Source: Candidatus Bathyarchaeia archaeon
Lineage (GTDB): Archaea > Thermoproteota > Bathyarchaeia > Bathyarchaeales > Bathycorpusculaceae
Assembly (NCBI GenBank): GCA_049969855.1
Contig: JBMFOB010000002.1
Span: 1-64,000 of the forward strand
Reading direction: 5' to 3'
DNA length: 64,000 nucleotides
Shown here one piece after another: positions 389-61,606 of the stretch. The notes under the pieces were generated by a model, which was given only the letters and a program-made list of their open reading frames with translations, did not search any database and was not told the origin of the DNA. The first letter of the stretch is position 1; each line of letters opens with the position of its first letter. Made by a program: the position numbers and the translations under genes.

Positions 389-1423
389 TTATCCAAACCA
401 TTTTTCTAATGTTGTCTTTCCCCTAAGCTTGGTTATTCCGCTCTGCATTTTCTCTACAGCTTTTCTTACACGCTCTTCCGAGAAGTCTCTTTCTCTGCAG
501 ATGAAATTTATAATGCCTTCCATGTCTGGTTCTTTCCATTCTATTTTGTAGTTGTCAGTAACTTTCGGATGGAGAAAAATCTCCCTAATTTTTTGAGGTT
601 CAACTGGAAACTCTGCATTTTTCAGGTATTGCATGGCGTTTTCTATGTTTCCGTGTTCTTTTATCAGTTTTAAGGCAGTTTTTGGTCCTAAACCTTTAAC
701 GCCGTCTGGATTGAAGTCTGTTCCTATAAGTATTCCTACGTCGATTAACTGTTCATATGTTATGTTGCATTCTCTCAGAACATTTTCTAATTCCACAATT
801 TCTGGGATGACTTCAATGTAAACGTTTTTGCTTGGAAGCTTTCTCTTTCCAGAAATTGTCACGTTTCTTACAAGTCTTGGGGCGCCAAAAAGTAAGCTAT
901 CGTAATCTTGGCTTGCGCAGTAATCGGCATCTCCGCGTTTCACTAGGTGCGCTGCTTGGGCTTCGCCTTCGCTGGGTGCTTGAACCCATGGGATTCCCAT
1001 CAAATCTAGGAGTTTTTTGCTGTCTTCTGCCATGTAATCTTTTAGGCGTGATGTGGCTTGAGCGTACATTCGGGCTTCTTCGATTTTTCCTTCTTTTATG
1101 GCTTGTTCATATCTTATTAGGGCTTCTTCTTTTGCTTTCATGCGCCTCTTTATCTCAACTTCCTTAAGCGTAGGTGGGATTCCATCGAAAACGTAGATTG
1201 GTTTTATTCCCATTTCCACAAGGTTGCTTGTTCTGTAAAGGAGCCCGCTCAGGTGGCTTGTTATTCTTCCCATGGTATCTTTTAATGGTGTGCCGTCTGG
1301 TTGGCGGATTATGGCTAAAAACTGGTATAGGGCGTTATAAGCGTCTATGGCTATGGATTTTCCACTTAAATCTTCAAGTCTAACAATTTTTTTAGGAACC
1401 AAGTCTCGAAGGTTTACTCCCAA
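389..1423 (-). CDS. fen: Flap endonuclease 1
   Basis: IDAYNALYQFL, APSEGEAQAA, SQDYDSLLFG, GTDFN..G.GPKTAL; C-terminal PIP-like TTLEKWF. Confidence 0.97.
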   Translation of the reverse strand: MGVNLRDLVPKKIVRLEDLSGKSIAIDAYNALYQFLAIIRQPDGTPLKDTMGRITSHLSGLLYRTSNLVEMGIKPIYVFDGIPPTLKEVEIKRRMKAKEEALIRYEQAIKEGKIEEARMYAQATSRLKDYMAEDSKKLLDLMGIPWVQAPSEGEAQAAHLVKRGDADYCASQDYDSLLFGAPRLVRNVTISGKRKLPSKNVYIEVIPEIVELENVLRECNITYEQLIDVGILIGTDFNPDGVKGLGPKTALKLIKEHGNIENAMQYLKNAEFPVEPQKIREIFLHPKVTDNYKIEWKEPDMEGIINFICRERDFSEERVRKAVEKMQSGITKLRGKTTLEKWFG

Positions 1424-1529
1424 AACAACCCCGTGAAATATAGCATAAGACTATAATAATAAACTTGCGAAAAGCACACAAAATATAAGGAAGCTTTACA
1501 ATTACAAAAGCTATCAATGAGGAATAATA

Positions 1530-1718
1530 ATGGCGGAAAAAACTGCAACCCTAACCCTAGTAACATGCACAAGCTGTGGTAAACCCATAGCTCCAGGAAC
1601 AGAAGCCACAAAGTTTCTCTGTCCAAACTGTGGCGAAATTTTGATAAGGCGTTGTGGAAAGTGCAGAAAGTTTGGGCGTCCATATAAGTGTCCAAAATGT
1701 GGCTTTACTGGACCATAA
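1530..1718 (+). CDS. Small Zn-ribbon protein (HVO_2753 / DUF1610-like)
   Basis: Four CxxC pairs: [21 protein letters not shown]; family usually found next to aEF-1beta. Confidence 0.9.
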
Positions 1719-1750
1719 CTAAATAAGAAAAAAGTGGAAGTTGAAGCGGG

Positions 1751-3376
1751 CTACTCTGGCGGTATCTCGCTGAGCAGTGTTTTAAGGTCTATACCCATTT
1801 TCTTGTTCTTGTAAGCGTAGTAAATGTATAGGGCTAAGCCTATGCCTAAAACGAGACATGATATGAAAATATCTAAGGGCTGCATGCTCTGTGCGTTGGC
1901 GGCGAAGAAGAATATGCCCAAAGCAAAGGCGGCAACACCACATATGGCTGGAATCGGCACTCCAGCAACCTCAACTTTGATGCTTTCGTATATTTCAGGT
2001 TTTGTGATTGGCAGCAAAGCAAGGGCAAGTCCTGTGAATAAATAGCCAAGCAAATACATGAATGTTGCATTAATTCCGCCTGCCAAAGTTCTCAGTGGAC
2101 CCAACACTGGTGAAGAGATGATTATTCCTATGGCTCCTCCAACTATCATGAATAATATTGCCCATGTGGGTGTGTGGAATCTTTCGCTGACATTAGCAAA
2201 TCTTTCTGGAAATAGCCTATCAAAAGCCAAAGAGAACACTCGCCTTGTTTCCATCATTAATGCTGAGGGGTTTACGTGGTAAAGGCTGAAGGCGCCAGCA
2301 GTAGCTATCAAAAATGCAAGGAACACGTTTCCTCCAGCGAATAGAACGGCGAACATTGGTAGCACTGGTTCAATTTTAGGCGTGATTACAAAGTCGGCTT
2401 TCCCCTTGTAGTATGCCCAGCTATATTTGGCAATGAAATCTCCACCTGCATAAAATGCTGAAGCAGCCATAGTTATGTAAATAACAGCCGTTATGAGCGT
2501 ACCACCAATTATTCCTATCAGCAAGTTTCTCTTTGGATTCTTTATCTCGCCCGACCATTGAGCAGGGTTATGGAATCCAGAATAAGCGAAAAGGGCAGCA
2601 CCAGCCACTGCTCGAATTGTAGCGTCAAAGTTTGGTGCAGCTGGGCTATAATTATATTTTTGAGCTATTGCTAAAATCTCATTGTAAGAGCCAGTGCCCC
2701 AGACTGCATCCCATGCGCTTTGGAAGGATGCTGGATTGAATGGGTTAGCATAATTTAGGGCGATGCAAGCTAAGGCGCCTACTAGTGGAATAAACCATAT
2801 TACCGCTATGTATGCCTTGAATGCTGTTCCTCCTATTGTCAAGAAAAACCATATGGTTAAGAGTAGAAGGAACGCAATAGCCAGCGTTATCAAAGGATCT
2901 GGTGGTGACGCTAAGAATTTGCCAAGATCTAGTATTGCGGCGTTTCCAGTGCCTTTTCCAAGCATTAAAAAGGCGATGCCCCAAAGTCCAACGTCAGTTA
3001 CGAGCAAAAACCCTATTGAGAACCATCTGCCCAGAAAGTTTCCTATTGTTACAACGTAGCCAAGCGCTGGGTTTGTTGTTCTTGATATGAAAACGTAGTC
3101 TCCTCCAGCCCTTGGCATGCATGAGGCAAGCCATGCGTATGATATGGCGAAGAAGAAGGCTGGAATCAATCCGATTATGAAAGCCAGTGTTGGGTCTGAG
3201 CCTGGATAGCTATACGGCATTCTTACTGATAGTCCCCAGATTCCTGCTCCTATCATGTTGTTCATTGCCATCATAAGTGCCATCATTGGACCGAATTCTC
3301 TGACAAGCCCAGTAGCCTCTCTTACAAAAGTTGCTTTAGACAATTTTCTCCTCTCCAGATTGCACAATTTTTTCAT
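1751..3376 (-). CDS. APC-family amino acid permease
   Basis: FVREATGLVRE N-terminus, MPRAGGDYVFISR, GEIKNPKR, R.VFSLAFDR.FP...V..RFHTP; about 12-14 hydrophobic segments. Confidence 0.92.
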   Translation of the reverse strand: MKKLCNLERRKLSKATFVREATGLVREFGPMMALMMAMNNMIGAGIWGLSVRMPYSYPGSDPTLAFIIGLIPAFFFAISYAWLASCMPRAGGDYVFISRTTNPALGYVVTIGNFLGRWFSIGFLLVTDVGLWGIAFLMLGKGTGNAAILDLGKFLASPPDPLITLAIAFLLLLTIWFFLTIGGTAFKAYIAVIWFIPLVGALACIALNYANPFNPASFQSAWDAVWGTGSYNEILAIAQKYNYSPAAPNFDATIRAVAGAALFAYSGFHNPAQWSGEIKNPKRNLLIGIIGGTLITAVIYITMAASAFYAGGDFIAKYSWAYYKGKADFVITPKIEPVLPMFAVLFAGGNVFLAFLIATAGAFSLYHVNPSALMMETRRVFSLAFDRLFPERFANVSERFHTPTWAILFMIVGGAIGIIISSPVLGPLRTLAGGINATFMYLLGYLFTGLALALLPITKPEIYESIKVEVAGVPIPAICGVAAFALGIFFFAANAQSMQPLDIFISCLVLGIGLALYIYYAYKNKKMGIDLKTLLSEIPPE

Positions 3377-3460
3377 TATATATTTGTGTGTTTATAAGCC
3401 TTTTTTAGCAACGTTCACTTTTTATGTAATTTTAAAGGAAACTTTTTATTAAATAGAAAA

Positions 3461-4402
3461 TTAGCAAGCCACCCTCCAGTGTCCCTGAACCGTATCTCCA
3501 CTCAAGAAAACAATGTAACCACGCAAAATACCCTCAGCATATTCGGAACCAGGATTAACACAAAGCGTTCTACCAAACCTTTTGAAACCAGCAGACTCAT
3601 GAATATGCCCATGTAACCCCAAAAGAGGCTTATACTTCTCAATCATGTGTCTCACGGCTTTGCTGCCAATAGGCGCCAAATCCACTCCTCCCCCGAAGCG
3701 AACTTTAACTGAAAAGTCCTCTTTCAGTCTTGGCGCTGTGTCAAGCCCAGAATTGTATGGTGGCGCGTGAAAGTTGCATATGAGCTTCTCATAATTTTCA
3801 GCTTTAGCCATTAACTCCTCTAACATGGGTTCAAGCTTTTCATCTGGCGCCTCTCTAGTGGTTTTCCATGGAGTAGGATTAACCCAACCGCATGTGACCA
3901 TTTGATATCCGTCTGGAAGATGGACAAGTTTCATTTCGCATGCAACTACAGAGTCGCTTTTCTCAAGTATTTCATCAACAACTAAGCGGTCATCATTTCC
4001 AGGAGAAACATAAAGCAGTGATTTTCCCTTGAAGTTTTCAGAGGCGAGGTTCATCCAATGTTGCATGCGTTCCATCATGAGGCGGTTGAAAAGGTCTTTT
4101 TGGGCTTGGGGGTCGTTGTTTAATTGTTCAATTTCTCCTTTTTCGCATGGATATGGATAGTAACCTGAATTTGCTATTTTTGCGCTTTCTTCTTGAAGTT
4201 GATTTGCCGCAATTCTGATGTGTCTGCCAAAAATTTCATATGAATATTCATTTCCTTCCCTAACCATTGGAATAACCATTTTTCCAGTTAAATCTCCGCC
4301 TAAAATTGCTATGTCAACCTTAAAATGTTCAATCACTTTCAAAAACTTCTTCCAACAGACATCGCTTCCGTGAACGTCAGATGCAAAGAAGAGTTTCAGC
4401 AA
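3461..4402 (-). CDS. Calcineurin-like (Icc-related) metallophosphoesterase
   Basis: SDVHGS, GGDLTGK, PGNDD, HAPPY, LHGHIHE, NPGSEY motifs. Confidence 0.9.
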   Translation of the reverse strand: MLKLFFASDVHGSDVCWKKFLKVIEHFKVDIAILGGDLTGKMVIPMVREGNEYSYEIFGRHIRIAANQLQEESAKIANSGYYPYPCEKGEIEQLNNDPQAQKDLFNRLMMERMQHWMNLASENFKGKSLLYVSPGNDDRLVVDEILEKSDSVVACEMKLVHLPDGYQMVTCGWVNPTPWKTTREAPDEKLEPMLEELMAKAENYEKLICNFHAPPYNSGLDTAPRLKEDFSVKVRFGGGVDLAPIGSKAVRHMIEKYKPLLGLHGHIHESAGFKRFGRTLCVNPGSEYAEGILRGYIVFLSGDTVQGHWRVAC

Positions 4403-4534
4403 CCATCTTCATCTCCAGACTTTAGTTCTAATGAGAATTTTCAGTGAAATATACTTTATGGAACAGCAAAATATTGCGTTTGCGACTTGTGGTTTTACCA
4501 ATAACTTTTTCTGTTTTCCCCCATAATGTAATGT

Positions 4535-5629
4535 TTGGGAGACTCAGTGGTGCATTGCATTCTCTTTACGGACTATGATGGCACAACTTACGAAGTTGAA
4601 ACGCCATTAACTTCAAAAATCAGCTACGAAAATATTAGAAAAAGCCTCGAAATCCCAGATTATGTTGATAAATCAAGTTTCACCATGGAAAGGGGTTTAG
4701 TTACTGTTTGGGCAGGGCTTAATGCTCACCGAGTTAAAGAACTTTTTCCAGCCGTAAACCTTCAAAAGCAGATTAAAGAACCCATATCAACGCTGTTTTT
4801 TGGTGGAGCAGCAGTTCGCATGTTATCTCCAAGCGCAAATAACCCCTCAAGCCCATTCTTCCGCGAATTAAATGACATAGACTTAATTGCACCTAAAAGC
4901 CGTGCACAAGACCTATACAAACTGCTGTTGTCTCTGGGTGAACTTTGCGGAACAAGATATTACCATTTTGTAGCTCGTTCCGATTGCAGATTTAATGCTA
5001 TGAGGGCTGGAAAACGCTATCGTGTTAGAACCATCGAGAAAATACTTAAGGATGGCTCCCTGCAGTGTGGCGTACTTGACATATTCACCGATGCAGTGGA
5101 TCTTAGGCATAAAGTTGATATCCGCGAAGAATTCAACGTTCCAAAAGAAAATTTGTACACGATAGGCGTGGACAATGTAATTCTTTCCAAGTGTCAATTC
5201 ATCTTTGACGTTCCAATTTCCGACAGAGATGAACTTGCCAGTCAACATATGAGTTATCGGATTCTAAACTACCCCTACTATAAAAGTGACCGCCTTCTAA
5301 TAGGCATAGAAGAGAAGGACATGAAGGACATATGCGCGTTATTCTTTGACCACGAAATCGGCAATGGAAAAAGTAACATAAACCCAGAAAAAATGCGCAG
5401 GATTCTCGAAAAAGACAAGAAGTTCGCCCTAACCTTTCGGCTTAATTTAGAAAATATACTGAGAAACGAAGCAGTTCTTCAAGAAATAGGGCTTTCCAAG
5501 GCGGATATTACAAAAATCTTCTCCCGCATCCAAAAAGTCTTAGAAATAGTGCCGAAAGTGGAGAAGAAATGGAGCAGTCCATGGTGGAACGTTGATGTTG
5601 AAACTCCGCAAATATTTGGAAAAGCTTGA
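4535..5629 (+). CDS. Putative Pol-beta-superfamily nucleotidyltransferase, uncharacterised
   Basis: FFGGAAV...RELNDIDL (hGG...DxD), later LDIF and EEKDMKD. Confidence 0.6.
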   Translation: MGDSVVHCILFTDYDGTTYEVETPLTSKISYENIRKSLEIPDYVDKSSFTMERGLVTVWAGLNAHRVKELFPAVNLQKQIKEPISTLFFGGAAVRMLSPSANNPSSPFFRELNDIDLIAPKSRAQDLYKLLLSLGELCGTRYYHFVARSDCRFNAMRAGKRYRVRTIEKILKDGSLQCGVLDIFTDAVDLRHKVDIREEFNVPKENLYTIGVDNVILSKCQFIFDVPISDRDELASQHMSYRILNYPYYKSDRLLIGIEEKDMKDICALFFDHEIGNGKSNINPEKMRRILEKDKKFALTFRLNLENILRNEAVLQEIGLSKADITKIFSRIQKVLEIVPKVEKKWSSPWWNVDVETPQIFGKA

Positions 5630-50164: not shown

Positions 50165-50602
50165 GTGAAGAAAAAATATTCCTTGTTGTCTCTTGCCATA
50201 GTTGCCTTGTTTCTCACCATTAGCCTTTCAACAATACGTTCAGAAGAAACGCAGTGGCTTTGTTTTGCATGCGAAGACGGCGGCGTTGTTGACAAAGTAC
50301 CATGTGAAGCTTTCACAGTGAAAATAGCTTTCAAAAACACTGGCAAATGTGAAGGCACATGGTCTATTAACATAGCCTTTGAAGGCGAAGCTTGGACTTG
50401 GAGTGGGACACCGCAAACATTAACTCTTAAACCGTGTAAAACAAAAACTTTGACATGGAATGGAACTGTTCCATGTGACGCTCCAATAAATTCCGTAGCA
50501 CGCTTAATAGTTTATTACAATGATTCTTTTGTGGCGCTGAACTGGTGGGTTCACATAATTTCTGGAGCGGAACTGGCAATAACCTCAAGCACTGTGGAAT
50601 AA
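50165..50602 (+). CDS. Small secreted Ig-like protein
   Basis: Signal peptide; F.V.IAFKNTG..EG.W CARDB-like strand pattern; several Cys. Confidence 0.6.
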   Translation: MKKKYSLLSLAIVALFLTISLSTIRSEETQWLCFACEDGGVVDKVPCEAFTVKIAFKNTGKCEGTWSINIAFEGEAWTWSGTPQTLTLKPCKTKTLTWNGTVPCDAPINSVARLIVYYNDSFVALNWWVHIISGAELAITSSTVE

Positions 50603-50728: not shown

Positions 50729-52216
50729 ATGGGCTGCGGAGTATTTGGAGCAATAAACTTCGAAGAACAGCCCATATTCCCATACATATACTGGGGCATG
50801 AGAGCCCAAAACCACAGGGGACACCAATCTCACGGATTCCTAACATTTGATAATGGAAAGTTCCACGTTCACAGAAGCCTAGACCTCATACCAAAAATAA
50901 AAACAAGCGCCATCCAAGAATGGTTTGGGCGTTTACCAGGGCGTGTGGGCATAGCAAATGTTAGATACACAACTTCTGGAAAATGCGACGAAAAATCGTT
51001 AATAAAGGGTACTCAACCTGTAACAGTCTCAAAAAACGGATTGGAATTGGCTGTTTCCTTTAATGGTAACGTTGTCAATGTATTCCAAGTTAAAGAGGAA
51101 ATAAGCAAATATTTCCCGAAATTTTCCTATGAATGTGACGCCGACCTCATCTCCCACAAACTCCTTATAGAATTATTAAAGAAAAAAGACATTGCATCAG
51201 CAGCAAAAACATGCATGAAAGAAATTGAAGGTGCCTTTTCAGTGGCTGGCATAACAAAAAACGGCGAATTTTTCGCCTTCAAAGACCCAAATGGAATAAG
51301 ACCATTGTGCGCTGGACACAGCGAAGACAAAACAACATACGCCTTCTCCTCAGAAACCGTGGGTTTAGACATAAACGGCTTCAAAAAAGCCTTTGAAATT
51401 GAGCCAGGCGAACTCGTAACCATTTCAAAGGATGGATTTCAAAGAGAGAAATTAGTGAATGGAGGCTGCAAGGCTTTCTGCGCCTTTGAATTTGCATATT
51501 TCGCCAGACCAGACTCATGTTTTGACGACAGATATGTTTATGAAGTCAGAGAGGAGTTCGGAAGAAATCTTGTTAGAGAAAACCCAGAGATAGCCAAAAA
51601 CGCAGACATAGTCATCTCCATTCCAGAAACAGGCGACGACGCAGCCTTTGGAGTTCATGAAGAATCTGGCTTAAAATGGGAAAGGGCTTCACGAAGGCAT
51701 CGTTTCGTAACTGAGAGAGCCTTCATTTTGCTGAATAGGGAGCGTTATGCAACCATAGACCGCAAAATTAACATTATAGCCTCAAAAGTTAATGGAAAAC
51801 GTGTCATAGTCACAGAAGACAGCATCGTGCGCGGCGACACAACAAAAATTGTTATAGAGAAACTCCGCAGAATGGGAGCAAAAAAGGTTTACCTTTTCGT
51901 AACTTTTCCACGCATAATTGGACCATGCTTCTATGGAATAGACATGGCAACATACGGTCAACTAATAGGCTCTAAACATACGGCTGAAGAAATAGCAAAA
52001 ATAATAGGTGCAGACGCAGTCTGCTACCAGTCCATAGATGGTTTCGTAAAAGCCACGGGATTCCGCCGTGACCAACTTTGTTTAGCATGCGTAACTGGCA
52101 AATATCCAACACCACTGGCACAAAAAATAGCAGATGAGATGAAAAAGAAATTCCTTGAAGGCTACGAGGAAAAGGGAAGGCTTTACGAGATAGCTGAAGC
52201 CGTCCAAAAAGCCTAG
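50729..52216 (+). CDS. purF: Amidophosphoribosyltransferase
   Basis: N-terminal CGVFG, HRG, RYTT.G, NGN, D..GIRPL, CAFEFAYFARPDS, EDSIVRG.T, GID, CLAC. Confidence 0.95.
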   Translation: MGCGVFGAINFEEQPIFPYIYWGMRAQNHRGHQSHGFLTFDNGKFHVHRSLDLIPKIKTSAIQEWFGRLPGRVGIANVRYTTSGKCDEKSLIKGTQPVTVSKNGLELAVSFNGNVVNVFQVKEEISKYFPKFSYECDADLISHKLLIELLKKKDIASAAKTCMKEIEGAFSVAGITKNGEFFAFKDPNGIRPLCAGHSEDKTTYAFSSETVGLDINGFKKAFEIEPGELVTISKDGFQREKLVNGGCKAFCAFEFAYFARPDSCFDDRYVYEVREEFGRNLVRENPEIAKNADIVISIPETGDDAAFGVHEESGLKWERASRRHRFVTERAFILLNRERYATIDRKINIIASKVNGKRVIVTEDSIVRGDTTKIVIEKLRRMGAKKVYLFVTFPRIIGPCFYGIDMATYGQLIGSKHTAEEIAKIIGADAVCYQSIDGFVKATGFRRDQLCLACVTGKYPTPLAQKIADEMKKKFLEGYEEKGRLYEIAEAVQKA

Positions 52217-52271
52217 CGCCAAAAATAAAATAGGCTTCAAACTTACTTCCATAACTAAAGGGACGCATGAC

Positions 52272-53681
52272 ATGGAGAAAGTTGGCATACTCGTGGTTTC
52301 TTATGGCGCAAGAGAAGTAGCCATGATAGACGCTTTTACACGCAGCACAAAATATGATGTGAAAGTTTATGTTGTTGATAAACAACGCAACCCCTTCAAC
52401 GTCAAAAAAGCAGCAGAGCACGTTGTCGTGCCAGACTTAAATGTTGATGAAATATGCAAGTTTGCAGAAAACAATAAGGATGAGATCGCCTTTGGCATAG
52501 TTGGACCAGAAAAACCAATAATTGAAGGCGTCCGCGACCTATTGGAAAAGCGGACTGGCATACCCATCATTTGTCCAAAAAAGGAATATGCCATAGAAGC
52601 AAGCAAAGTGCAGCAGCGCTTATTATTCCAAAAAATAGTGCCAGAAGTGAATCCACGCTTCAAAATTTTCAACCCAAAAGATTACAAAAGCCAAGAAGAT
52701 GCGAAGAAGGCTGTTTACAAATGGCTGGATGAGCTTGGGGATATGGCTGTTGTTAAACCAGACCAGCCAGCAGCAGGAAAAGGCGTTGGCGTTTGGGGAG
52801 ACCATTTTACAACCCGCGAGGAATTGTTTGAGCATTTTATGGCAAATTTCCAGCATGGCTCAGTAATAATTGAAGAAAAAATCGATGGCGAAGAATCGAG
52901 TTTTCAAGCCTTCTGTGATGGCAAACACTTGGTGCCCTTACCAGAAACGAGGGATTATAAGCGAGCCTTTGACGGTGACAAGGGTCCGAACACTGGTGGA
53001 ATGGGTTCTTATAAGAATGTTGGCGATGTTTTGCCCTTTATGACTGATGCTGATAGGGCTAGGGAAGTTGAGATTGTTAAGCGAATCTTTGAAAAGTGGG
53101 AGGTTAAAGATAAAAGCGGCTTAAGGGGTATCCCGTTCTATGTGGCTTTCATGCACACAAGCGAAGAACCAAAAATCCTTGAGAACAACAGCAGACCCGG
53201 AGACCCAGAAATAATCAACATATTGCCAATTTTAAAGGATGATTTTGTGGACATTTGCTTCAAAATTTTGGAAGGAAACCTAACAAAAATCGAATTAGAA
53301 AAAACTGCAACAGTCGTAACCTACAAGGTTCCACCAAACTACGGCGGATACATTGATGCTTTTCCACAACTTGTGGACAAGAACGAAATTGGCACACCAG
53401 TCAACCTAACAGAAGCTTACGAACTAACAAAAAAGTATGGTGAAAAAATCAGCATCTACCCAGCATCCATGGAACTCCGCAACAACGAAACCTACGCTCT
53501 CAAATCTAGAGCTGTTGGCGTTGTGGGCATAGGCGAAAACATAGAGGCTGCTAGAAGAGTTTCTTGGGAAGGCATAAAAGCCATTAAAGGCGGAGCATTG
53601 TGGCATAGGAAAGACATAGCCTCAAAAAGGCATATAACAAAAAGCATTAAGCATATGAAGCGTTTGAGGCTTAAAAAGTGA
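52272..53681 (+). CDS. purD: Phosphoribosylamine--glycine ligase
   Basis: GARE, VGPE, EASK, AAGKGV, DYKR.FDGD.GPNTGGMG, NSRPGDPE. Confidence 0.93.
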   Translation: MEKVGILVVSYGAREVAMIDAFTRSTKYDVKVYVVDKQRNPFNVKKAAEHVVVPDLNVDEICKFAENNKDEIAFGIVGPEKPIIEGVRDLLEKRTGIPIICPKKEYAIEASKVQQRLLFQKIVPEVNPRFKIFNPKDYKSQEDAKKAVYKWLDELGDMAVVKPDQPAAGKGVGVWGDHFTTREELFEHFMANFQHGSVIIEEKIDGEESSFQAFCDGKHLVPLPETRDYKRAFDGDKGPNTGGMGSYKNVGDVLPFMTDADRAREVEIVKRIFEKWEVKDKSGLRGIPFYVAFMHTSEEPKILENNSRPGDPEIINILPILKDDFVDICFKILEGNLTKIELEKTATVVTYKVPPNYGGYIDAFPQLVDKNEIGTPVNLTEAYELTKKYGEKISIYPASMELRNNETYALKSRAVGVVGIGENIEAARRVSWEGIKAIKGGALWHRKDIASKRHITKSIKHMKRLRLKK

Positions 53682-54760
53682 AAAGAGTTTTCATATCAGA
53701 CTGTGAAGGACCAATCTCAAAAAATGATAATGCCTTTGAAATAACATCCCATTACGTTCCACACGGCGACAAACTTTTCACGGTAATAAGTAAATATGAC
53801 GATGTTTTGGCAGAAGTCCTAAAAAGACCAAATTATAAGGCTGGAGACACTTTAAAACTTATACTGCCTTTCTTGAAGGCTTATGATGTTACAGACGCCA
53901 AAATGCGGGAATTTTCTGCCAAAAGCCTACTTTTAATTGCTAATGTTAAGGATATGCTGTCACATGTGAGAAATGCAGCCCACGCTTTTATCGTTAGCAC
54001 AAGCTATCAGCATTACATAGAGGCTTTATGTCAAGCCTTGAATTTTCCATACGAGAACACCTACTGCACAAGGCTATGCCTTGACAAATACCCCATAACC
54101 GAGAAAGAAAGAAGTGAACTGAAAGAATTGGCGAGAGAAATTGCAGAAATGCCCCTAATTAAAATCCCACCAAACGCAAAAACCATGAGCGACTTTTCCA
54201 AAAAAGACCAAGAGTTAATTGATCGGCTGGACGAAATTTTCTGGAATACCATAACAAAAATGGACATTGGCAAAATTTTCTCCGAAGTTAATCCAGTTGG
54301 AGGAAGCGAGAAAGCCGAAGCCGTGAAAGATGCAGCTAAAAAGGTTGGTGTTGAGCTAAGCGATGTGATGTATGTGGGCGACAGCATAACAGATGTAGAA
54401 GCATTTAGGCTTGTGAAACAAAATGGCGGCTTAGCCGTCTCCTTCAATGGTAACGAGTATGCCGTAAGAAATGCTGAAATTGCCATACTATCCGAAAATA
54501 GCATAGCCACTGCGATAATTGCAGAATTATTTAGCAAATTTGGGAAACAAGAAACCCTAAAGATTGTTGAAAATTGGAGTCATGAAACACTAAAGAAAAG
54601 CTCCATAAACCAGACATTACTTAACAACCTTTCCGGTTTGTATCCTAAAAAATTGCCCAAAGTTAAAATAATAACAAAAGAGAATATGAAGACTCTGGCA
54701 AAAGAAAGTAGCAAATTCAGAAAAAGGGTTAGAGGCGAAGCCATAGGAAGGCTGGGATAA
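53678..54760 (+). CDS. HAD-superfamily hydrolase (COG4030 / EhaR-like)
   Basis: SDCEGP.SKNDNA.E (motif I variant), [20 protein letters not shown]; GTGA overlap with purD. Confidence 0.8.
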
Positions 54761-54761
54761 A

Positions 54762-55673
54762 ATGGTAAAGAAGGCTGAAGTTGAAGACGCTTATGCAGAG
54801 GCCTTTGAAGGAATATTCACCAGAATAATAGTTACCGCTGATGGTGAAGAAACACTACGAAAAGCAGCAGAAGACGCAACAGCAACACCATCCATAGTCA
54901 TTGGCAGAGTTGAAGGAGGAATAGAAAAATGGCTAAGCAAAAAAGAAACCCCAGACAAACGCCAAGGCGCTTTGCTCCAGTTTTGGGGTGGAATAGACCC
55001 AAAAAAGCCCTTTTCAGACTCTGTTAAAAAATTTGAGGTTGAGCTTTCCTACAGAATCCGCCAAGACATTCTCGTTAAACCTTTTACGGCAGTTTTTGAC
55101 GCAACGCAAAAGGCTGAAGGGAAAATTGACATGATGGAGCGTGTAGGACATTGCGGAGATGGTTATGAGTGGGTTGAAAAACGTTTTGGACGCGAAGTTA
55201 TTGTCGTTCCCATAATGGTTCCGGACTTCATTATCGAACGCTATTTAGGCTATGCCCATGGAGTTATGGGTGCGAATTTTTGGGTTATGTGCAAAACAAA
55301 AGAAGCCTTGAAAAAGGCTGGAGAAAAAGCCTTAGAAGCAATTCACAAAATTGATGGTGTAATAACGCCTTTTGATGTTTGTTCTGCGGGTTCTAAGCCT
55401 GAAACAAGTTTTCCATGGATTGGACCGACAACAAACCATCCATACTGTCCGTCCCTAAAAAAGAAGTTAGGCAAAGAATCTAAAGTTCCCGAAGGCGTCA
55501 ACTACATTCCAGAAATCGTAATCAATGGGGTTTCACTGGAAGCTGTGAAAAAGGCTATGCGGGCTGGCATAGACGCAGCATTAGGCGTTGAGGGTGTTGT
55601 GAAGGTTTCTGCTGGAAATTATGGTGGAAAACTTGGCAATTATAAGATTTATTTGCGTGAGCTGTTTTCATGA
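54762..55673 (+). CDS. ftr: Formylmethanofuran--H4MPT formyltransferase (Ftr) family protein, divergent
   Basis: [43 protein letters not shown]. Confidence 0.85.
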
Positions 55674-56584
55674 ACACTTTTGACGTTATAGGATTCGGCG
55701 CCTTAAACGTCGACAAACTTTTCAAAGTGAATAAAATAGCTGGGGCTGAAGAAGAAGGCTTCATTATGAACTGTGAAGAATGGTGTGGGGGCTCAGCGGC
55801 AAACACTATCGTCGGCTTGGCAAAGCTAGGTTGCAAAGTTGGTTTTATAGGAAAAATAGCCAAGGATAGGGAAGGAAAAATGCTCATTGAAGATTTTCGT
55901 AAGGAAGGCGTTGACACAAACGGCATAGTCTACGCAAAAGGTGGCAGAAGCGGAACAGTCATGGGTTTCGTGGATGAAAAGGGCGAAAGAGCCTTATATG
56001 TGGACCCAGGCGTGAACGATACGATAGAGTTTAACGAAATAAGCAAGGATTACGCTTTTAGCACGCAATTTTTGCATTTAAGCTCCTTTGTTGGAGAAAA
56101 GTCCTTCCAAACCCAAAAAAGGCTTGTTGAAATATTGCCCGAAAATGTTAAGGTAAGCCTTGACCCTGGAGAATTATACGCCAGAAAAGGACTAGCCGCG
56201 TTAGAGCCCATGATAAAGCGCACTTTTGTTTTGATGCCAAATCAAAGAGAACTCCAACTTCTAACCAAAGCGAAAGATTACAAAAAAGGCGCTGAGGTTC
56301 TGCTTGAAAATGGCGTTAAAATAGTTGCTGTAAAACTTGGCAATAAAGGCTGTTATGTTACGGATGGAAAGGAAAACCACCAGATAAACCGCTTTAACGT
56401 AAAAGTTGTTGACACCACGGGTGCTGGTGATGCCTTCTGTGCAGGCTTCCTATACGGCTTAATTAATGGTAAAAGTTTGTACGAATGCGGAAGGCTGGGT
56501 AATTTTGTAGCTTCAAGGTGCATAATGAAAATGGGTGCCAGAACAGGACTTCCACACATTGAAGATTTAAAGCTTCTTCGTTAA
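55670..56584 (+). CDS. PfkB/ribokinase-family kinase (nucleoside-kinase-like)
   Basis: [29 protein letters not shown]; ATGA overlap with ftr. Confidence 0.9.
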
Positions 56585-57385
56585 GTATTCAATTAAACTT
56601 TCAAAGATTAGTTTTCCATCGCCATATTGGGGCATTTGCTTTTGTCTTGTCCAGTCTGGCTGTTGCCACCAATAAAATGCTCTTTCTGGATGCGGCATCA
56701 AACCAAAAATTGTCCCTTCTGGATTGCATATTCCAGCTATGTCATGGAAAGAGCCATTTGGGTTTGTTGGAAAACATCCATTAGCATATTCGCCACTTTT
56801 ATCACAATAGCGGAAGACTAGTTGGTCATTGTCGTAAAGTCTTTCCAGAAACGGTTTTTCCTTTTCCTTTGCAAACATGAATCTGCCTTCTGAATGGGCA
56901 ACGGGAATCCGCAAAACTTTTCCCTGAGGAATCTTCCAAGTAAATGCACATTTTCCCTTGTTTTCATGCCTAATGTAAATCCATCGACAATTATATCCAG
57001 GCGGAAAATTAGGCGCCAAAACCGCTTCAGGATAGGGACTTATTCCATCAAATCCCGGAAGAAAACCAGCCTCAACAAGCACTTGAAAGCCATTACAAAT
57101 GCCAAGGATTAAGCGATTTTCATTAACGAAAACTTTAAGCTCCTTGCCCAACTTTGCCATAATCCACTTCGCCCATATGGCGCCAGCCCGCACATAATCC
57201 CCATAAGAGAAGCCTCCTGGAAAAACCAGAACATGATATTCCAAAAGGTTTCCGCGCTTAACCAATTCACTTGCATGCAAAATTTCAGTTTGAACACTCA
57301 ACTCCTCAAAAGCCCGTTTTGTTTCTGCGTCGCAGTTTGTTCCGCCAACCCTTAAAACGCAGACTTTAATCTCTTCCCGTTTCAT
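56567..57385 (-). CDS. purQ: FGAM synthase glutaminase subunit PurQ
   Basis: GTNCD.ET, PGGFSYGDY, GICNGFQ.L, AHSEG, NPNGS, MPHPER; start ATG 57385 (ORF track 57418). Confidence 0.95.
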   Translation of the reverse strand: MKREEIKVCVLRVGGTNCDAETKRAFEELSVQTEILHASELVKRGNLLEYHVLVFPGGFSYGDYVRAGAIWAKWIMAKLGKELKVFVNENRLILGICNGFQVLVEAGFLPGFDGISPYPEAVLAPNFPPGYNCRWIYIRHENKGKCAFTWKIPQGKVLRIPVAHSEGRFMFAKEKEKPFLERLYDNDQLVFRYCDKSGEYANGCFPTNPNGSFHDIAGICNPEGTIFGLMPHPERAFYWWQQPDWTRQKQMPQYGDGKLIFESLIEYLTKKL

Positions 57386-57387
57386 GC

Positions 57388-59769
57388 TTAAACCCCGCTG
57401 CTTAGGGTTCTTTTCCAACTTGCCAACAAATCCTTCAACGAAGCATCCACAACAACTTCATCGGCTAATCCGTAAACGCATAACCTTGGAGCCTTTGCGA
57501 CTTTACCTATTTCAGCATACGCAACACCTTTAAACAGTGCCTCAAACTCTTTTTTCGCCTTTTGTGAAACTTCCACCAAAAAGCGACTGTTAGACTCCGA
57601 AAACAAAACGAAATCATTACGATTCACATTTTCTCTTGGAACCTTTCGCAATTGCAATTCCATTCCATATCCGCCAGCAAAAGCCATCTCCGCAGCCGCC
57701 ACGCCTAAACCGCCTTCAGATAAATCGTGGCAAGCCTTAACCAATCCTAAATCAACAGCCTTAGTAATTGCCCTAAAAGTTTTCATGGCTTGTTTTGCCC
57801 GCACTTTCGGCACAGAGTTTCCAACAAAACCCTTAAGCCTATAATATTCTGAACCGCCCAGCTCGTTATAGGTTTGTCCAACAATGTAGATTAAGTCGTC
57901 AACATCTTTAACATCTATGGACACAACCAAACGAACATCTGGAACTATGCCCAAAGCAGTAATTAAAAGCGTAGGCGTAACCGTTCCAAGCGGAGATTCA
58001 TTGTAAAGGCTGTCCTTTCCAGAAATAAATGGTGTTTTAAAGGCTGTTGCAAAATCATAACATGCTTCACAAGCCCTAACAAGACTGCCAAGGATTTCGG
58101 GCTTTTCCGGGTTGCCCCAAGTGAAATTATCAAGTAAGGCTATTCTTCTTCCGCCAACAGCCACATTATTTCTTATAGCTTCATCTATTGCTGAGGCAGC
58201 CATCCAATAAACATCAATTTTTCCGTAATTTGGATTCATCCCACATGAAATGGCTAAGCCTTTCCACGAATCCATCAATGGTTTAAGCACAGCCGCATCA
58301 TTAGGTCCAGCAAACTCACCATGCAACGGCTTGAGCAAAGTGTTCCCTTTAACCTCATGGTCGTAAGTGCGTATCACACTTTCTTTGCTTGCAATATTGG
58401 GCGAAGATAAAAGTTGCATAAACGTTTCAGTTAAGTTTTCTGGTTCTTGAAAGGATGGCTCCTCAAAAATTTTCGGCTTATAATGGGCGGTTCTTATAAC
58501 TTTGGGCGGTTCAAAGAGAAATGGAATCTCTATTTCCGCAACCTTTTCGCTTTGAAAATAAACCCTTAAAACCTTATCCTCTGTATATTTTCCAATAGCA
58601 TTAGCCTCCACATCCTCACTCCTGAAAACTTCTAAGACTTCTTCCAAATTTTCAGGAGAAACAGCCAAAAGCATCCGCTCTTGCGATTCAGAAACATAAA
58701 TTTCCCAAGGCGCCAAACCAGAATACTTCAAAGGAACCTTATCCAACTCAACAACAGCGCCACAACCAAAACGCTTTGCTGTTTCGCCAATAGCAGATGA
58801 TAAGCCGCCTCCGCCTAAGTCCGTTATTGCCGATGCAATCTCCAAATCTCGAATCTTAATTATCGCCCTCTTCAGCTTCTCCTCCTCAATCGGATTTGCA
58901 ATTTGAACCGCTGGTCTCGAAACCTCTTCTGACTTTTCAGTCAACACAGCAGATGCAAAAGTTACGCCGTGAATGCCATCCCGACCGGTTCTTCCTCCAG
59001 CCAAAACTATAATATCATCTGGTTTGGCGTTTCTCCTAAACTTTTTCAATGGAAGCAATCCGACGCATCCACAGTAGACAACCACATTCCCAACATAGCT
59101 TTCATCAAAGTATATGGCTCCATTAACCGTTGGAATGCCCATGTTATTGCCATAACTCCCTATACCCGCAACCACCCCCATGTAAACATATTTCGGATGC
59201 TTAACCCCAGACGGAAGCTTTTCAAATTCAAAATTTAATGGACCAAAACCCAAAACATCCATGCACGCTATCGGGTCAGCCCAAACCCCCAAAACATCAC
59301 GAATCACCCCACCAACCCCAGTGGCTGCACCACCAAAAGGCTCCACAGCAGAAGGATGGTTATGAGTTTCAACTTTAACTGCAACTCCATAACCCTTATC
59401 AAAACGGATTATGCCAGCATTATCCTCAAAAATTGAAAAACACCATCTTGGCTTAACCTCATTGGTTGCCTTTGCAATATACGTTCTAAAAAGGCTATCA
59501 ATATCTTTCCCATCAAACTTTACCTTACCCTTAAAGGTTTTGTGAAAACAATGCTCAGACCACGTTTGTCCAATTGTTTGAAGTTCCACATCTGTTGGAT
59601 TTCGCCCTTTCCGCCTAAAATATTCTTTAATACTCTTCATTTCCTGCAAATTTAATCCTATGCCAAGTTCAAGGCTTAATTCTAAAAGTTGTTGTTCAGA
59701 AGCTTCAAGAATGTTAACTTCAAAAAGTGGAAAAGGAGTTTTTCTGCGAATGTAAAGGCTTTCAGTCAT
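57388..59769 (-). CDS. purL: FGAM synthase subunit PurL
   Basis: WSEHCFHK, ETHNHPS..EP.GGA.TG, D.GGGG, SESQERM, HD.SEGG. Confidence 0.97.
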   Translation of the reverse strand: MTESLYIRRKTPFPLFEVNILEASEQQLLELSLELGIGLNLQEMKSIKEYFRRKGRNPTDVELQTIGQTWSEHCFHKTFKGKVKFDGKDIDSLFRTYIAKATNEVKPRWCFSIFEDNAGIIRFDKGYGVAVKVETHNHPSAVEPFGGAATGVGGVIRDVLGVWADPIACMDVLGFGPLNFEFEKLPSGVKHPKYVYMGVVAGIGSYGNNMGIPTVNGAIYFDESYVGNVVVYCGCVGLLPLKKFRRNAKPDDIIVLAGGRTGRDGIHGVTFASAVLTEKSEEVSRPAVQIANPIEEEKLKRAIIKIRDLEIASAITDLGGGGLSSAIGETAKRFGCGAVVELDKVPLKYSGLAPWEIYVSESQERMLLAVSPENLEEVLEVFRSEDVEANAIGKYTEDKVLRVYFQSEKVAEIEIPFLFEPPKVIRTAHYKPKIFEEPSFQEPENLTETFMQLLSSPNIASKESVIRTYDHEVKGNTLLKPLHGEFAGPNDAAVLKPLMDSWKGLAISCGMNPNYGKIDVYWMAASAIDEAIRNNVAVGGRRIALLDNFTWGNPEKPEILGSLVRACEACYDFATAFKTPFISGKDSLYNESPLGTVTPTLLITALGIVPDVRLVVSIDVKDVDDLIYIVGQTYNELGGSEYYRLKGFVGNSVPKVRAKQAMKTFRAITKAVDLGLVKACHDLSEGGLGVAAAEMAFAGGYGMELQLRKVPRENVNRNDFVLFSESNSRFLVEVSQKAKKEFEALFKGVAYAEIGKVAKAPRLCVYGLADEVVVDASLKDLLASWKRTLSSGV

Positions 59770-60017
59770 CTTTCTTCCTCAACCGTAATCACATAATCAT
59801 CCTTTGTTGGATTTGCCAAAAGTCTCCTACACATTTCATCCGCCTTCACATTGGCTTCTTCCTTGGATTCTGCTTCAAGAACTACGCTGTAAACTTTACT
59901 AACATTCGCAGCATCAACTCCATAGCCAAGCTCTCTAAGTAAACGCGCTGTGGTCTCACCCTCAGGGTCGCTGTGTCCAGGCTTTAACCTAACTTCAATT
60001 TTTAAACGGTATTTCAT
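59766..60017 (-). CDS. purS: FGAM synthase subunit PurS
   Basis: LKPG.SDPEG, LLANP. Confidence 0.93.
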   Translation of the reverse strand: MKYRLKIEVRLKPGHSDPEGETTARLLRELGYGVDAANVSKVYSVVLEAESKEEANVKADEMCRRLLANPTKDDYVITVEEER

Positions 60018-60071
60018 AGGCTAAGTTTGAGTTTTAAAAGATTTAAACACTTTTATCAGCAAAAACTAAAA

Positions 60072-61154
60072 TCATTTCAAAACGATCTTCCTATCCCTAT
60101 AAAGAATCCTGATTCCTCTGGAATCCGTTACAAAGCCTATCGGTTCAACTTGTACACCATTTTTCTCCAAGACATCTATTGCCTTGTCCTCATCCTCTTT
60201 GTCAACCACCACCGCAAAACCCCATCCCATGTTAAACGTCTTAAACATCTCCTCATCCGTTATTTTTCCACCCAATTCCGAAGCGGTTTTCTGAATTAAC
60301 TCAAAAATCGGCTGCGGTTTGAAATTGTCAAACTTGAAACCTATACCCTTCGAAAACTCCGTCAACCTATCAAATTTTAAATATGCATCGCCAGTAATGT
60401 GCACCGCAGCCCTAACCCTAACCTCTTCAGCAACCCTAAGCAATGGCGTAACATATATCCTAGTAGGTTCCAAAACTTCGTAAACAACTTCCCTATTCAA
60501 TCCCTCTGGAACATCGTAAGGCTCATATTTTCCACCCCAACGCTTAAAAAGAACTTTCCTCGCCAAAGAAACACCATTACTGTGAATTCCAGAACTTCTC
60601 AATCCAACAACAACATCGCCAGCCTTTATGTCTCTTCCATAAATTATTTTCTCACCAGAAACCACCCCAATAGCTGCCACAACCAAGTCAAACCCTTTAC
60701 CCTCCACCAAACCCTTCACTACCTCGGCAACATCACCAATCTCCCCACTAGGCACAACGCATCCAGCCTCAACAGCCCCTTTGGCTATTCCCTTCAACAA
60801 TTCCCTAATTAAGCTCGGATCAGAAACTTGAGCGTGAATGTTATCTGCAACCGCCAAAGGCTTAGCTCCAGACCTAATAACGTCATTAACAGCCATAGCA
60901 ACGCCATCAACACCTATCGTATTGTATTTTCCAGCCAACTGCGCAACAAGAACCTTAGTGCCCACACCCTCAATAACCAAATCCAAAAAACGCCCATTCT
61001 CCAAGGGAAAAATGTTTCCATAAGGAAGCTTAACAACTCTACCATAACAACTAAACTTATAAGTTTCCATTAAAATCCGCAAAGCCCCCTTAGATTGGCT
61101 TCTAAGTCTTCTGTTAACGCCAGCTTGAGCATACGTGATTTTTTTAACCATCAT
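60072..61154 (-). CDS. purM: AIR synthase PurM
   Basis: TYAQAGV, EGVGTK, AM.VND, SSGIHSNG.SL.RK, HITG, TFNMG.G; start 61154 (ORF track 61337). Confidence 0.94.
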   Translation of the reverse strand: MMVKKITYAQAGVNRRLRSQSKGALRILMETYKFSCYGRVVKLPYGNIFPLENGRFLDLVIEGVGTKVLVAQLAGKYNTIGVDGVAMAVNDVIRSGAKPLAVADNIHAQVSDPSLIRELLKGIAKGAVEAGCVVPSGEIGDVAEVVKGLVEGKGFDLVVAAIGVVSGEKIIYGRDIKAGDVVVGLRSSGIHSNGVSLARKVLFKRWGGKYEPYDVPEGLNREVVYEVLEPTRIYVTPLLRVAEEVRVRAAVHITGDAYLKFDRLTEFSKGIGFKFDNFKPQPIFELIQKTASELGGKITDEEMFKTFNMGWGFAVVVDKEDEDKAIDVLEKNGVQVEPIGFVTDSRGIRILYRDRKIVLK

Positions 61155-61312
61155 TTTTGGTGCTCCTCCATTAATTAATAAATGACCAATTAACATACGA
61201 TGGCTTAGAAAATAACGTTTTTGGGACAGTTCACCATGAATTACAAACTTATTGAACATGGTAAGAAAAATTTTTATTCTAATTAAACAATAATTGGTTT
61301 TGAAGGAGAAGT

Positions 61313-61606
61313 ATGCTGAACTTAATATATTCTTCATATTCTCTTCTAAATGCTTTCAAATACAGAGATAGAATGACTATAATTGGAGATATCTTAAAGA
61401 GTATTAAAGAGTCCAGAAATGGAAGGAAACTGTCTCAAATAATGCAGAGTGCAAACCTAAACTACATTCAGACAAAAAAGTATTTGAATTATCTCCTTAA
61501 CTGCGGTTTCCTTGTAGTTACTGAAAAGGAAACGTACACTATAACAAGTAATGGTTTAAAGTTTTTGCAGTTTGTCGAAATACAAAGAATACACATGATA
61601 CGCTAA
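61313..61606 (+). CDS. Winged-helix (ArnR1/HTH_45-like) regulator
   Basis: YRDR..II.DIL, IMQSANLN...KKYL..L...G, Y.IT..G..FL. Confidence 0.8.
   Translation: MLNLIYSSYSLLNAFKYRDRMTIIGDILKSIKESRNGRKLSQIMQSANLNYIQTKKYLNYLLNCGFLVVTEKETYTITSNGLKFLQFVEIQRIHMIR

Follow-up and report, generated by a model that had tools for sequence, protein, structure and literature searches.

Two types of enzyme are known for the third step of purine synthesis, the conversion of glycinamide ribonucleotide (GAR) to formylglycinamide ribonucleotide (FGAR): PurN (EC 2.1.2.2), whose donor is 10-formyl-tetrahydrofolate, and PurT, an ATP-grasp enzyme that uses free formate via formyl phosphate. An enzyme for this step has been missing since the 2011 curation in Archaeoglobi, Methanobacteriales-type methanogens and Methanopyrus, and also in anaerobic methanotrophic archaea of group 1 (ANME-1), all of which make their own purines according to the available sections of two studies (PMC3261824; PMC9012536). 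Here we describe a candidate for this step, found in a stretch of 64,000 nucleotides of Candidatus Bathyarchaeia archaeon (assembly GCA_049969855.1, contig JBMFOB010000002.1, positions 1 to 64,000), referred to below as the window. The candidate is a paralogue of formylmethanofuran:tetrahydromethanopterin (H4MPT) formyltransferase (Ftr), termed Ftr2 (P0001), whose gene sits between purD and a convergent purQLS set. Judging from sequence comparisons, Ftr2 rather probably represents a third type of GAR formyltransferase, not homologous to the other two, that takes its formyl group from methanofuran or H4MPT.

In its available sections, Brown 2011 (PMC3261824) reports neither PurN nor PurT for two Archaeoglobi, four Methanobacteriales-type species and M. 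kandleri, which are otherwise purine-competent, and calls for a new step-3 enzyme. Likewise, the available part of Chadwick 2022 (PMC9012536) describes ANME-1 as devoid of both PurN and PurT and mentions an uncharacterised "Ftr2" alongside the canonical Ftr in ANME-1, ANME-2a/b, Archaeoglobales, M. kandleri and Methanothermobacter (M. marburgensis); the purine gap and the Ftr2 paralogues are not connected with each other in that part of the text. As far as these excerpts go, the overlap between lineages without PurN and PurT and lineages with Ftr2 paralogues is striking. In the full-text literature searched, which excluded subscription journals and supplements, no paper was found in which GAR formyltransferase is linked to an Ftr paralogue, to methanofuran or to H4MPT; the supplementary tables of PMC9012536 and PMC3261824 may include the genes in question. 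Finally, the second "Ftr" and the "ribokinase" of Methanothermobacter are described, in the section available of Kaster 2011 (PMC3087415), as the last genes of the eha operon, co-transcribed and of doubted annotated function. From the same section, this EhaS/EhaT pair resembles the locus described here in that an Ftr-like gene is followed by a ribokinase-like gene, but it is attached to a hydrogenase operon and not to pur genes.

In the window, ORF (open reading frame) predictions and Pfam/NCBIfam matches agree with the two convergent operons, carrying purF, purD, purSLQ and purM, that had been proposed in a sequence-only reading of this DNA. One operon (purF-purD-HAD-Ftr2-PfkB) occupies the plus strand and the other (purQLS and purM) the minus strand, at the right end of the window (Table 1). 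The span proposed for the cluster, 50729-61154, stands at its start and not at its end, position 61154 being an internal start of the purM frame, whose long ORF extends to 61337; the purM model match starts at residue 67 of this ORF, and translation may in fact begin at the internal Met near 61154. The tight coupling of purD, HAD, ftr and pfkB was confirmed from the DNA, with a 4-nt GTGA overlap between purD and HAD (53678-53681), a 1-nt gap between HAD and Ftr2 (TAA-A-ATG, 54758-54764) and an ATGA overlap between Ftr2 and PfkB (55670-55673).

The assembly is a metagenome-assembled genome (MAG) of 1.28 Mb, 93.2% complete and divided into 49 contigs. Step 3, which had been noted as absent from the cluster, could not be found elsewhere either: across the whole assembly five candidates for PF00551 (Formyl_trans_N, PurN-type) were scored and none passed, and no match was obtained for TIGR01142/PurT or for a PurH-type protein. 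Genes purE, purC and purB are encoded outside the window, and this genome (G000) has a single ORF for PurP, which serves step 9; step 3 is the only purine step without a recognised candidate in this genome. The assembly contains two Ftr genes. The second, canonical one (Ftr1), for which a genome search had been suggested, is located on contig C17 after a gene with an Mpt_N methylene-H4MPT dehydrogenase domain and its product is 39% identical to Ftr2. Other H4MPT and methanofuran genes occur on C35 (Mch) and C25 (FwdA), in line with the earlier remark that no further H4MPT-pathway gene lies near Ftr2; of the families searched (Ftr1, Mch, FwdA) none occurs in the window, of whose 64 kb not every ORF was annotated.

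Ftr2 displays the complete two-lobe architecture of its family, with matches to PF01913 (149.8 bits, residues 3-151) and PF02741 (196.4 bits, residues 154-301); its Pfam matches are to FTR domains only and include no Formyl_trans_N or PurT-type ATP-grasp domain. It scores above the cut-off of the broader subfamily model NF002554 (349.8 bits versus 297) and below that of the equivalog model TIGR03119 (233.6 bits versus 292.6), which therefore does not recognise it as a canonical Ftr. Three solved archaeal Ftr align with it over their full length at 176-183 bits (183 to 1M5S), and FhcD (6S6Y) at 107 bits. Relatives were searched in 1.84 billion representatives and a tree was built from 51 near-full-length matches and the two copies of the genome (53 rows). 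In this tree, the Ftr2 clade (11 rows) and a 7-row clade jointly stand apart from the remaining 35 rows, with an ultrafast bootstrap of 100 and an SH-like approximate likelihood ratio test (SH-aLRT) value of 99, and the two smaller clades are separated from each other at 99/95; a quick tree was concordant. The 35-row group includes the Ftr1 of the genome and P0133, an Ftr1-type protein whose scores against the three solved archaeal Ftr lie at 285-290 bits and against FhcD 6S6Y at 218 bits. Ftr2 belongs to a clade separate from all characterised Ftr, outside the canonical one. Sequences closely related to P0001 carry the names Bathyarchaeia or Bathyarchaeota in their sources. Names in the 7-row clade (P0143, P0183, P0190, P0204, P0231, P0251 and P0260) are Lokiarchaeia, Hodarchaeota, Thorarchaeota and Promethearchaeota (Asgard), and this Asgard Ftr-like clade is strongly diverged, with 66-122 bits to solved Ftr in the two members tested. 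An EhaS-like identity was considered for it and rejected because of these Asgard names.

Residues were compared between 38 non-redundant Ftr2 and 30 Ftr1 sequences. Core residues are common to both sets, and among them is the catalytic glutamate, Glu251 of P0001 (motif EIVING), which is at least 85% conserved in either set and corresponds, as counted on the alignment, to Glu245 of M. kandleri Ftr. In the part available of the FhcD study (PMC6926001), the active site of the Ftr family is placed at the dimer interface, with the oxyanion stabilised by a protonated Glu, and Glu252 is given as the catalytic glutamate that plays this role in FhcD. Four glycines with a conservation of at least 90% in Ftr1 (G41, G125, G205 and G214) are replaced in P0001 by A, M, D and E, respectively, and F131 of Ftr1 is replaced by a C that is invariant in Ftr2. 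Invariant positions specific to Ftr2 comprise R49, R100, Q73, W75 and W174, the two arginines being absent from Ftr1, and a 4-residue insert is found at 79-82. The deviant motifs pointed out previously are present opposite the canonical ones in alignments to solved Ftr, PSIVIGR (residue 43) facing TSVIMCP and QDILVKP (residue 101) facing QCVLTAP.

The distribution of Ftr2 was mapped by running P0001, PF00551 and the models of PurT and PurD against 201 genomes of Bathyarchaeia, each from a different species and at least 80% complete. Matches to P0001 were bimodal, those with at least 52% identity being counted as Ftr2 and those with at most 44% as Ftr1. Of the 172 PurD-positive genomes, 70 have Ftr2 only, 84 PF00551 only and 11 PurT-like matches only (full length, 225-303 bits, below the curated cut-off), while two have two systems and five none, a near mutual exclusion that matches the anticorrelation with purN and purT expected from the sequence-only reading. 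Among the 29 PurD-negative genomes, 22 are devoid of all three candidates, and 20 of these 22 carry an Ftr1-type gene and none Ftr2; three genomes (G052, G063 and G070) are PurD-negative and Ftr2-positive, two of these matches being near contig ends. Ftr2 follows purine synthesis and not the H4MPT pathway. The step-3 state is uniform in 24 of the 27 PurD-bearing families and mixed in three: in f11, PurT-like genes occur in seven genomes, Ftr2 in G011 and G035 and PF00551 in G060, Ftr2 and PurT being mutually exclusive within the family; in f21, three genomes have Ftr2 and two a PurN-like gene; and in f20, seven of the nine genomes carry Ftr2, with PF00551 in addition in G130, while G193 has neither.

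PurP was detected in 73 of the 75 Ftr2-positive and in 10 of the 11 PurT genomes. It was not found in folate-type lineages (0/50 in f18, 0/3 in f8, 0/4 in f15) and is absent from G028 and G124. Because PurP is absent with PurN-like genes and present with Ftr2 or PurT, the class divides into genomes with a folate route, in which a PurN-like gene occurs without PurP, and genomes with a folate-free one, in which PurP is combined with PurT or Ftr2. A formyl source exists in G000 and in 69 of the 75 Ftr2-positive genomes, which have FwdA. A single Ftr-family match occurs in eight Ftr2-positive genomes (G123, G135, G159, G180, G189, G031, G035 and G062). It was also observed that PurD scores fall into two classes among the rows listed, ca. 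220-275 bits in genomes with the HAD module and in f8 and f15, and 340-510 bits in most PurN lineages, PurT lineages and stand-alone Ftr2 genomes (see below).

Linkage of Ftr2 to pur genes was examined by tblastn with window proteins in 80 GTDB loci from Bathyarchaeia with an orthologue 71-94% identical to P0001. PfkB lies directly downstream in 67 of them and HAD upstream in 66; purD is found in 60, purF upstream in 55, purQ in 60 and purL in 57. Eleven loci have no cluster neighbour, one corresponding to a 1.2-kb contig and ten having Ftr2 among unrelated genes. In 80 further loci from metagenomes, 79 of which are of the P0001 type (59-80% identical) and many of which are on contigs of only 1-5 kb, PfkB follows Ftr2 in 53, HAD precedes it in 44 and purD is present in 33. 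The 4-nt overlap of the Ftr2/PfkB pair was found in 63 of 68 pairs under a strict motif filter. Some Ftr2 of the Bathyarchaeia type (75-80% identical) occur in MAGs labelled Desulfobacterales, Thorarchaeota, Acidiferrales and Limnocylindrales (L027, L050, L064 and L078), labels that likely reflect mis-binning or mislabelling; "Euryarchaeota", "Methanobacteriota" and "Methanomicrobia" labels on several similar loci look equally doubtful.

Two situations found in these genomes point in the same direction as the earlier proposal and go beyond it. In the first situation, five genomes (G002, G010, G034, G028 and G124) have no Ftr2, have kept the HAD orthologue and carry a PurN-like gene encoding 281-330 aa directly after purD. 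This gene (X) lies in a contiguous purD-X-HAD-PfkB arrangement in G034 and G028, and in G034 the order purD, PurN-like, HAD, PfkB, FolD is tightly packed. The PurN-like protein scores 42-66 bits to PF00551 and, in the two cases tested, 73-75 bits to TIGR00639, below the equivalog cut-off, and its catalytic N-x-H and D residues are kept. A formyltransferase of another fold thus replaces Ftr2 inside the same purD/HAD/PfkB cluster, and we regard this swap as the strongest single argument for Ftr2 being the formyltransferase of the cluster.

The second situation relates to the ten genomes behind the context-free loci, four of which are records labelled chromosome (closed). All ten have PurD (421-438 bits in nine, 325 in the tenth), and none has PurT or PF00551. 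That PurN and PurT are missing can thus not be put down to incomplete assembly. Five of the ten were checked further: each has one Ftr2 (74-77% identical) and one Ftr1, and in these five the HAD orthologue is gone, only paralogues of 31-33% identity being found elsewhere. The nearest PfkB of the stand-alone genomes is 43-47% identical and unlinked. These genomes indicate that Ftr2 is able to function when HAD and PfkB do not flank it. In one of them an 85-aa frame that shares 59% identity with the final 51 residues of HAD occurs at G201:C1:2417718-2417870, just upstream of Ftr2 at 2417877, and looks like a relic of an ancestral HAD-Ftr2 arrangement after HAD loss.

The sequence-only reading had inferred that the Ftr paralogue formylates GAR, and had named as observations that would speak against this a purN or purT in the genome, Ftr2 being its sole canonical Ftr and a lack of conserved linkage to pur genes. 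None of these was encountered, and the proposed function is supported by all of these in silico comparisons. Ftr2 would then be a neofunctionalised paralogue of formylmethanofuran:H4MPT formyltransferase that converts GAR to FGAR in Bathyarchaeia without PurN and PurT. In this mechanism the glycyl amine of GAR, which like the amine of methanofuran is primary and of the aminomethyl type, would replace one of the natural substrates, R49 and R100 being candidates for binding the 5'-phosphate of GAR, and Glu251 would have the role it plays in Ftr and FhcD, stabilising the oxyanion of the tetrahedral intermediate. The formyl group would come from the one-carbon (C1) carriers of the organism, either formyl-methanofuran supplied by Fwd or N5-formyl-H4MPT supplied by Ftr1/Mch, and a roughly isoenergetic transfer would be pulled by the ATP-dependent PurLQS encoded opposite. 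With step 9 left to the formate-dependent PurP, the pathway would be folate-free.

Compared with canonical Ftr (EC 2.3.1.101; 1FTR/2FHJ, 1M5H and 1M5S), Ftr2 has the same FTR and FTR_C architecture, length and catalytic glutamate but is encoded in a purine operon and not beside H4MPT genes. The reaction proposed is that of PurN, a cofactor-bound formyl being placed onto the GAR amine without ATP, and the pathway position next to purD is also the same, PurN-like and Ftr2 genes swapping in related clusters; the two proteins are unrelated in sequence or fold, however, and the donor of Ftr2 would be formyl-methanofuran or formyl-H4MPT instead of 10-formyl-tetrahydrofolate. With PurT it shares a folate-independent step 3 paired in archaea with PurP for step 9, although it has no ATP-binding domain. 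FhcD (6S6Y) is an Ftr-family protein with the same proposed oxyanion stabilisation by a protonated Glu (PMC6926001, in the part available), but it groups with Ftr1 and works in a complex with Fwd-like subunits.

Several points weigh against Ftr2 as a GAR formyltransferase, the support for which is comparative throughout. Ftr2 may retain ordinary Ftr activity, as it passes NF002554 and keeps the core residues. N10-formyl-H4MPT is considered not to serve as a donor of formyl groups according to the section available of Brown 2011 (PMC3261824), and in that of the FhcD study (PMC6926001) the transfer from formyl-H4MPT to methylofuran is given as +4.4 kJ/mol, which makes N5-formyl-H4MPT the weaker donor. 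The simple model leaves unexplained the constant co-inheritance of HAD (75/75) and PfkB (69/75) and their retention beside the PurN-like gene. In the phyletic pattern, two systems are combined in G130 and, by a weak PurT-like match of 175 bits, in G001, and five PurD-positive genomes have no step-3 candidate, two of these (G153 and G193) having the HAD gene at a contig end. The 70/84/11 distribution overstates the number of independent events, many genomes being kin and switches occurring only in three families and in the stand-alone lineage, and the Ftr2-only families may be a single clade. In f11, low-scoring PurD is found only in the two Ftr2 genomes (G011 and G035), which suggests that the operon with its low-scoring purD was transferred as a block; this alone would yield co-occurrence. 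Finally, the Ftr2 of Bathyarchaeia is likened to euryarchaeal Ftr2/EhaS by published descriptions only, its named relatives being Bathyarchaeia and its sister clade Asgard.

HAD orthologues (at least 43% identical, no background) occur in 82 of the 201 genomes, namely in all 75 Ftr2-positive genomes and in seven others, and in none of the genomes of three PurN or PurT families (0/50 in f18, 0/26 in f28, 0/3 in f17). The PfkB orthologue (at least 53% identity or partial) is present in 69 of the 75 Ftr2-positive genomes and in none of the 126 Ftr2-negative ones, the six exceptions having a contig break or an adjoining, more distant PfkB gene. Catalytic positions D8, S/T107-109, K212, D235 and D239 of HAD are invariant in 20 orthologues. 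Motif I of this protein reads D-C-E-G-P (D-x-E), with a Glu where most HAD phosphatases have a second Asp. By sequence, its only PDB relative is 1Y8A, the functionally uncharacterised AF1437 of A. fulgidus, to which its AlphaFold model (predicted local distance difference test, pLDDT, of 94) also aligns in Foldseek with a template modelling (TM) score of 0.91 on target length, followed by HADs of the phosphoserine phosphatase type. In PfkB, the GG, NxxE and GAGD motifs are intact, and its nearest solved structures are adenosine kinase 3UBO and ribokinases. From these data, it seems that the transferase works together with a phosphatase and with a kinase acting on ribose or a riboside; HAD and PfkB probably assist the same step or the supply of ribose-phosphate.

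In one genome, a single ORF of 598 aa combines Ftr2 and PfkB (FTR, FTR_C, PfkB; L183 (G183:C1) 3255-5051(+)). This was seen in 1 of 75 Ftr2-positive genomes and in none of the 160 loci from GTDB and metagenomes, and could be a rare real event or an indel at the usual ATGA overlap. An ORF of 604 aa upstream of Ftr2 in G052, L184 (G052:C1) 1393-3207(+), consists of an FAD/Fer4 (4Fe-4S)-like N-terminal part and the C-terminal two thirds of HAD. Its interpretation as a purD-HAD fusion was rejected on the basis of this N-terminal part, and PurD had no match at E <= 1e-30 in this single-contig genome. Other long Ftr-family proteins were considered as Ftr-kinase fusions and rejected (P0178, P0142, P0168 and P0202, which have FTR domains only), while the long Ftr1-type proteins P0174 and P0162 are fused to Fwd/Fhc parts; none of the six has a PfkB domain. 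Ftr2 was never seen beside Fwd/Fhc-type genes in the loci examined.

This constant association raises the question of a bypass at the riboside level, in which HAD would strip the 5'-phosphate from GAR, Ftr2 would formylate the riboside and PfkB would re-phosphorylate the product to FGAR. Such a route would spend one ATP, as PurT does, and make a near-equilibrium formyl transfer irreversible, and its phosphatase/kinase frame could host an Ftr-type or a PurN-like transferase. It fits the phyletic counts of the two genes, the purD-HAD-Ftr2-PfkB order with overlapping stops and starts, the catalytic motifs kept in both proteins and the proximity of PfkB to ribokinases and adenosine kinases, whose phosphorylation target is the 5'-OH of ribose or ribosides. 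The fusion in G183 would also agree with it, as would P0134, a distant member of the Ftr2 clade (40% identical) that is encoded between a phosphoribosyl pyrophosphate (PRPP) synthetase gene and a different HAD hydrolase gene. The ten genomes with Ftr2 alone, with the HAD orthologue lost and PfkB distant and unlinked, nevertheless argue against it, and the persistence of HAD and PfkB beside the PurN-like gene (purD-X-HAD-PfkB) shows that these genes are not tied to Ftr chemistry; the fusion, moreover, is confined to one genome and may stem from an assembly indel. To our knowledge, no pathway via GAR riboside is known, and we regard this route as unlikely. A substrate other than GAR is likewise improbable. 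Ftr2 might act for purine synthesis by releasing formate from formyl-methanofuran for PurP, in the manner of PurU, by making N-formylglycine for the low-scoring PurD to ligate to phosphoribosylamine, or by formylating aminoimidazole carboxamide ribonucleotide (AICAR). Indeed, PurP requires formate and is found in 73 of 75 Ftr2-positive genomes, the type of purD varies together with the module, and glycine, too, has an aminomethyl amine. Formate supply or AICAR formylation would, however, leave 70 PurD-positive genomes with no enzyme for step 3, PurP occurs without Ftr2 in PurT lineages in 10 of 11 cases, and the one PurP gene of G000 covers step 9, while a PurD using formylglycine is at odds with stand-alone Ftr2 being paired with canonical, high-scoring PurD.

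Slightly less probable still is that Ftr2 is an ordinary second Ftr isoenzyme performing the normal transfer between formyl-methanofuran and H4MPT, for instance to provide C1 units for biosynthesis, its purine location being incidental or regulatory and step 3 relying on another enzyme. The full-length match to Ftr models and solved Ftr and the kept catalytic Glu are what such an isoenzyme would display, Ftr2 might be the sole Ftr in the eight Ftr2-positive genomes with one Ftr-family match, and many archaea have Ftr paralogues of unknown role, as mentioned in the available part of Chadwick 2022 (PMC9012536). An ordinary role does not explain the near-exclusive pattern with PurN and PurT, why Ftr2 is missing from PurD-less genomes in which Ftr1 is kept, why a PurN-like gene takes its place within one and the same cluster, or the loss of four Ftr1-invariant glycines and the gain of invariant R49 and R100; the Fwd/Fhc fusions, moreover, are of the Ftr1 type. 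Lastly, the gap might be unfilled, in purine auxotrophs with a decaying pathway or with PurN or PurT left unassembled. The genome is a MAG in 49 contigs of 93% completeness, and auxotrophy has been raised for gut methanogens in the section available of Brown 2011 (PMC3261824). However, the remaining pathway genes are intact and tightly packed, and the same pattern recurs in 70 genomes and in four records labelled chromosome, which makes this explanation very improbable. A second PurP paralogue was also considered as the step-3 enzyme and rejected, tandem PurP being found in Ftr2 and PurT lineages alike and G000 having a single PurP.

The locus provides a specific candidate that can be cloned and, with the statistical pattern and the naturally occurring gene swap, makes the function of Ftr2 as a GAR formyltransferase directly testable. 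If true, it would define a third, non-homologous class of this enzyme, and biosynthesis would draw directly on formyl groups carried by methanofuran or H4MPT, which have long been seen as catabolic or as unsuitable donors. It would also correct thousands of "Ftr" annotations that are counted as Wood-Ljungdahl or methanogenesis markers in MAGs of Bathyarchaeia and others, and could explain the Ftr-like gene on the anaplerotic Eha hydrogenase operon of methanogens. The riboside bypass, if true, would be the first de novo purine route via a nucleoside-level intermediate and would tie methanogenic C1 carriers directly to nucleotide synthesis.

Table 1. Genes of the purine cluster in the window, and PurN-like genes found in place of Ftr2 in related genomes
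Feature	Position	Strand	Evidence
purF, amidophosphoribosyltransferase (step 1)	50729..52216	+	TIGR01134 317 bits, full length, cut-off 350 not reached; GATase_7
purD, GAR synthetase (step 2), low-scoring type	52272..53681	+	GARS_N/A/C; TIGR00877 274.7 bits (cut-off 288)
HAD-IB-like hydrolase, AF1437 family, 360 aa	53678..54760	+	HAD Pfam/NCBIfam matches
Ftr paralogue Ftr2 (P0001), 303 aa, candidate GAR formyltransferase	54762..55673	+	FTR + FTR_C
PfkB-family ribokinase/nucleoside-kinase-like kinase	55670..56584	+	PfkB 185.8 bits; best NCBIfam match ribokinase, 169.8 bits (cut-off 299.65)
purQ (step 4, glutaminase subunit)	56567..57418	-	NF002252 303.6 bits, above cut-off
purL (step 4, FGAR consumer)	57388..59769	-	TIGR01736 695 bits
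purS (step 4)	59766..60017	-	TIGR00302 74.1 bits, above cut-off
purM (step 5)	60072..61337	-	TIGR00878 254.4 bits, above cut-off
Small winged-helix protein, 97 aa	61313..61606	+	HTH_45 63.9 bits
PurN-like genes	L086 (G034:C8) 2860-3705; L087 2841-3833; L088 923-1822; L090 366-1223	- (all)	

Other features of the genome were noted. The PurP ORF, located at G000:C17:3026-3790(-) and of 477 aa, is matched by the DUF1297 model in two pieces, which implies an insertion; in many related genomes of both Ftr2 and PurT lineages, two tandem PurP paralogues of ca. 365 aa are found. The winged-helix gene is divergent from purM and overlaps its long frame; from its placement, the product is a possible regulator of the cluster. 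Finally, an ORF of 145 aa (50165-50602(+)) is located between aspS and purF; it has no Pfam match and is kept in 15 of the 80 related loci.

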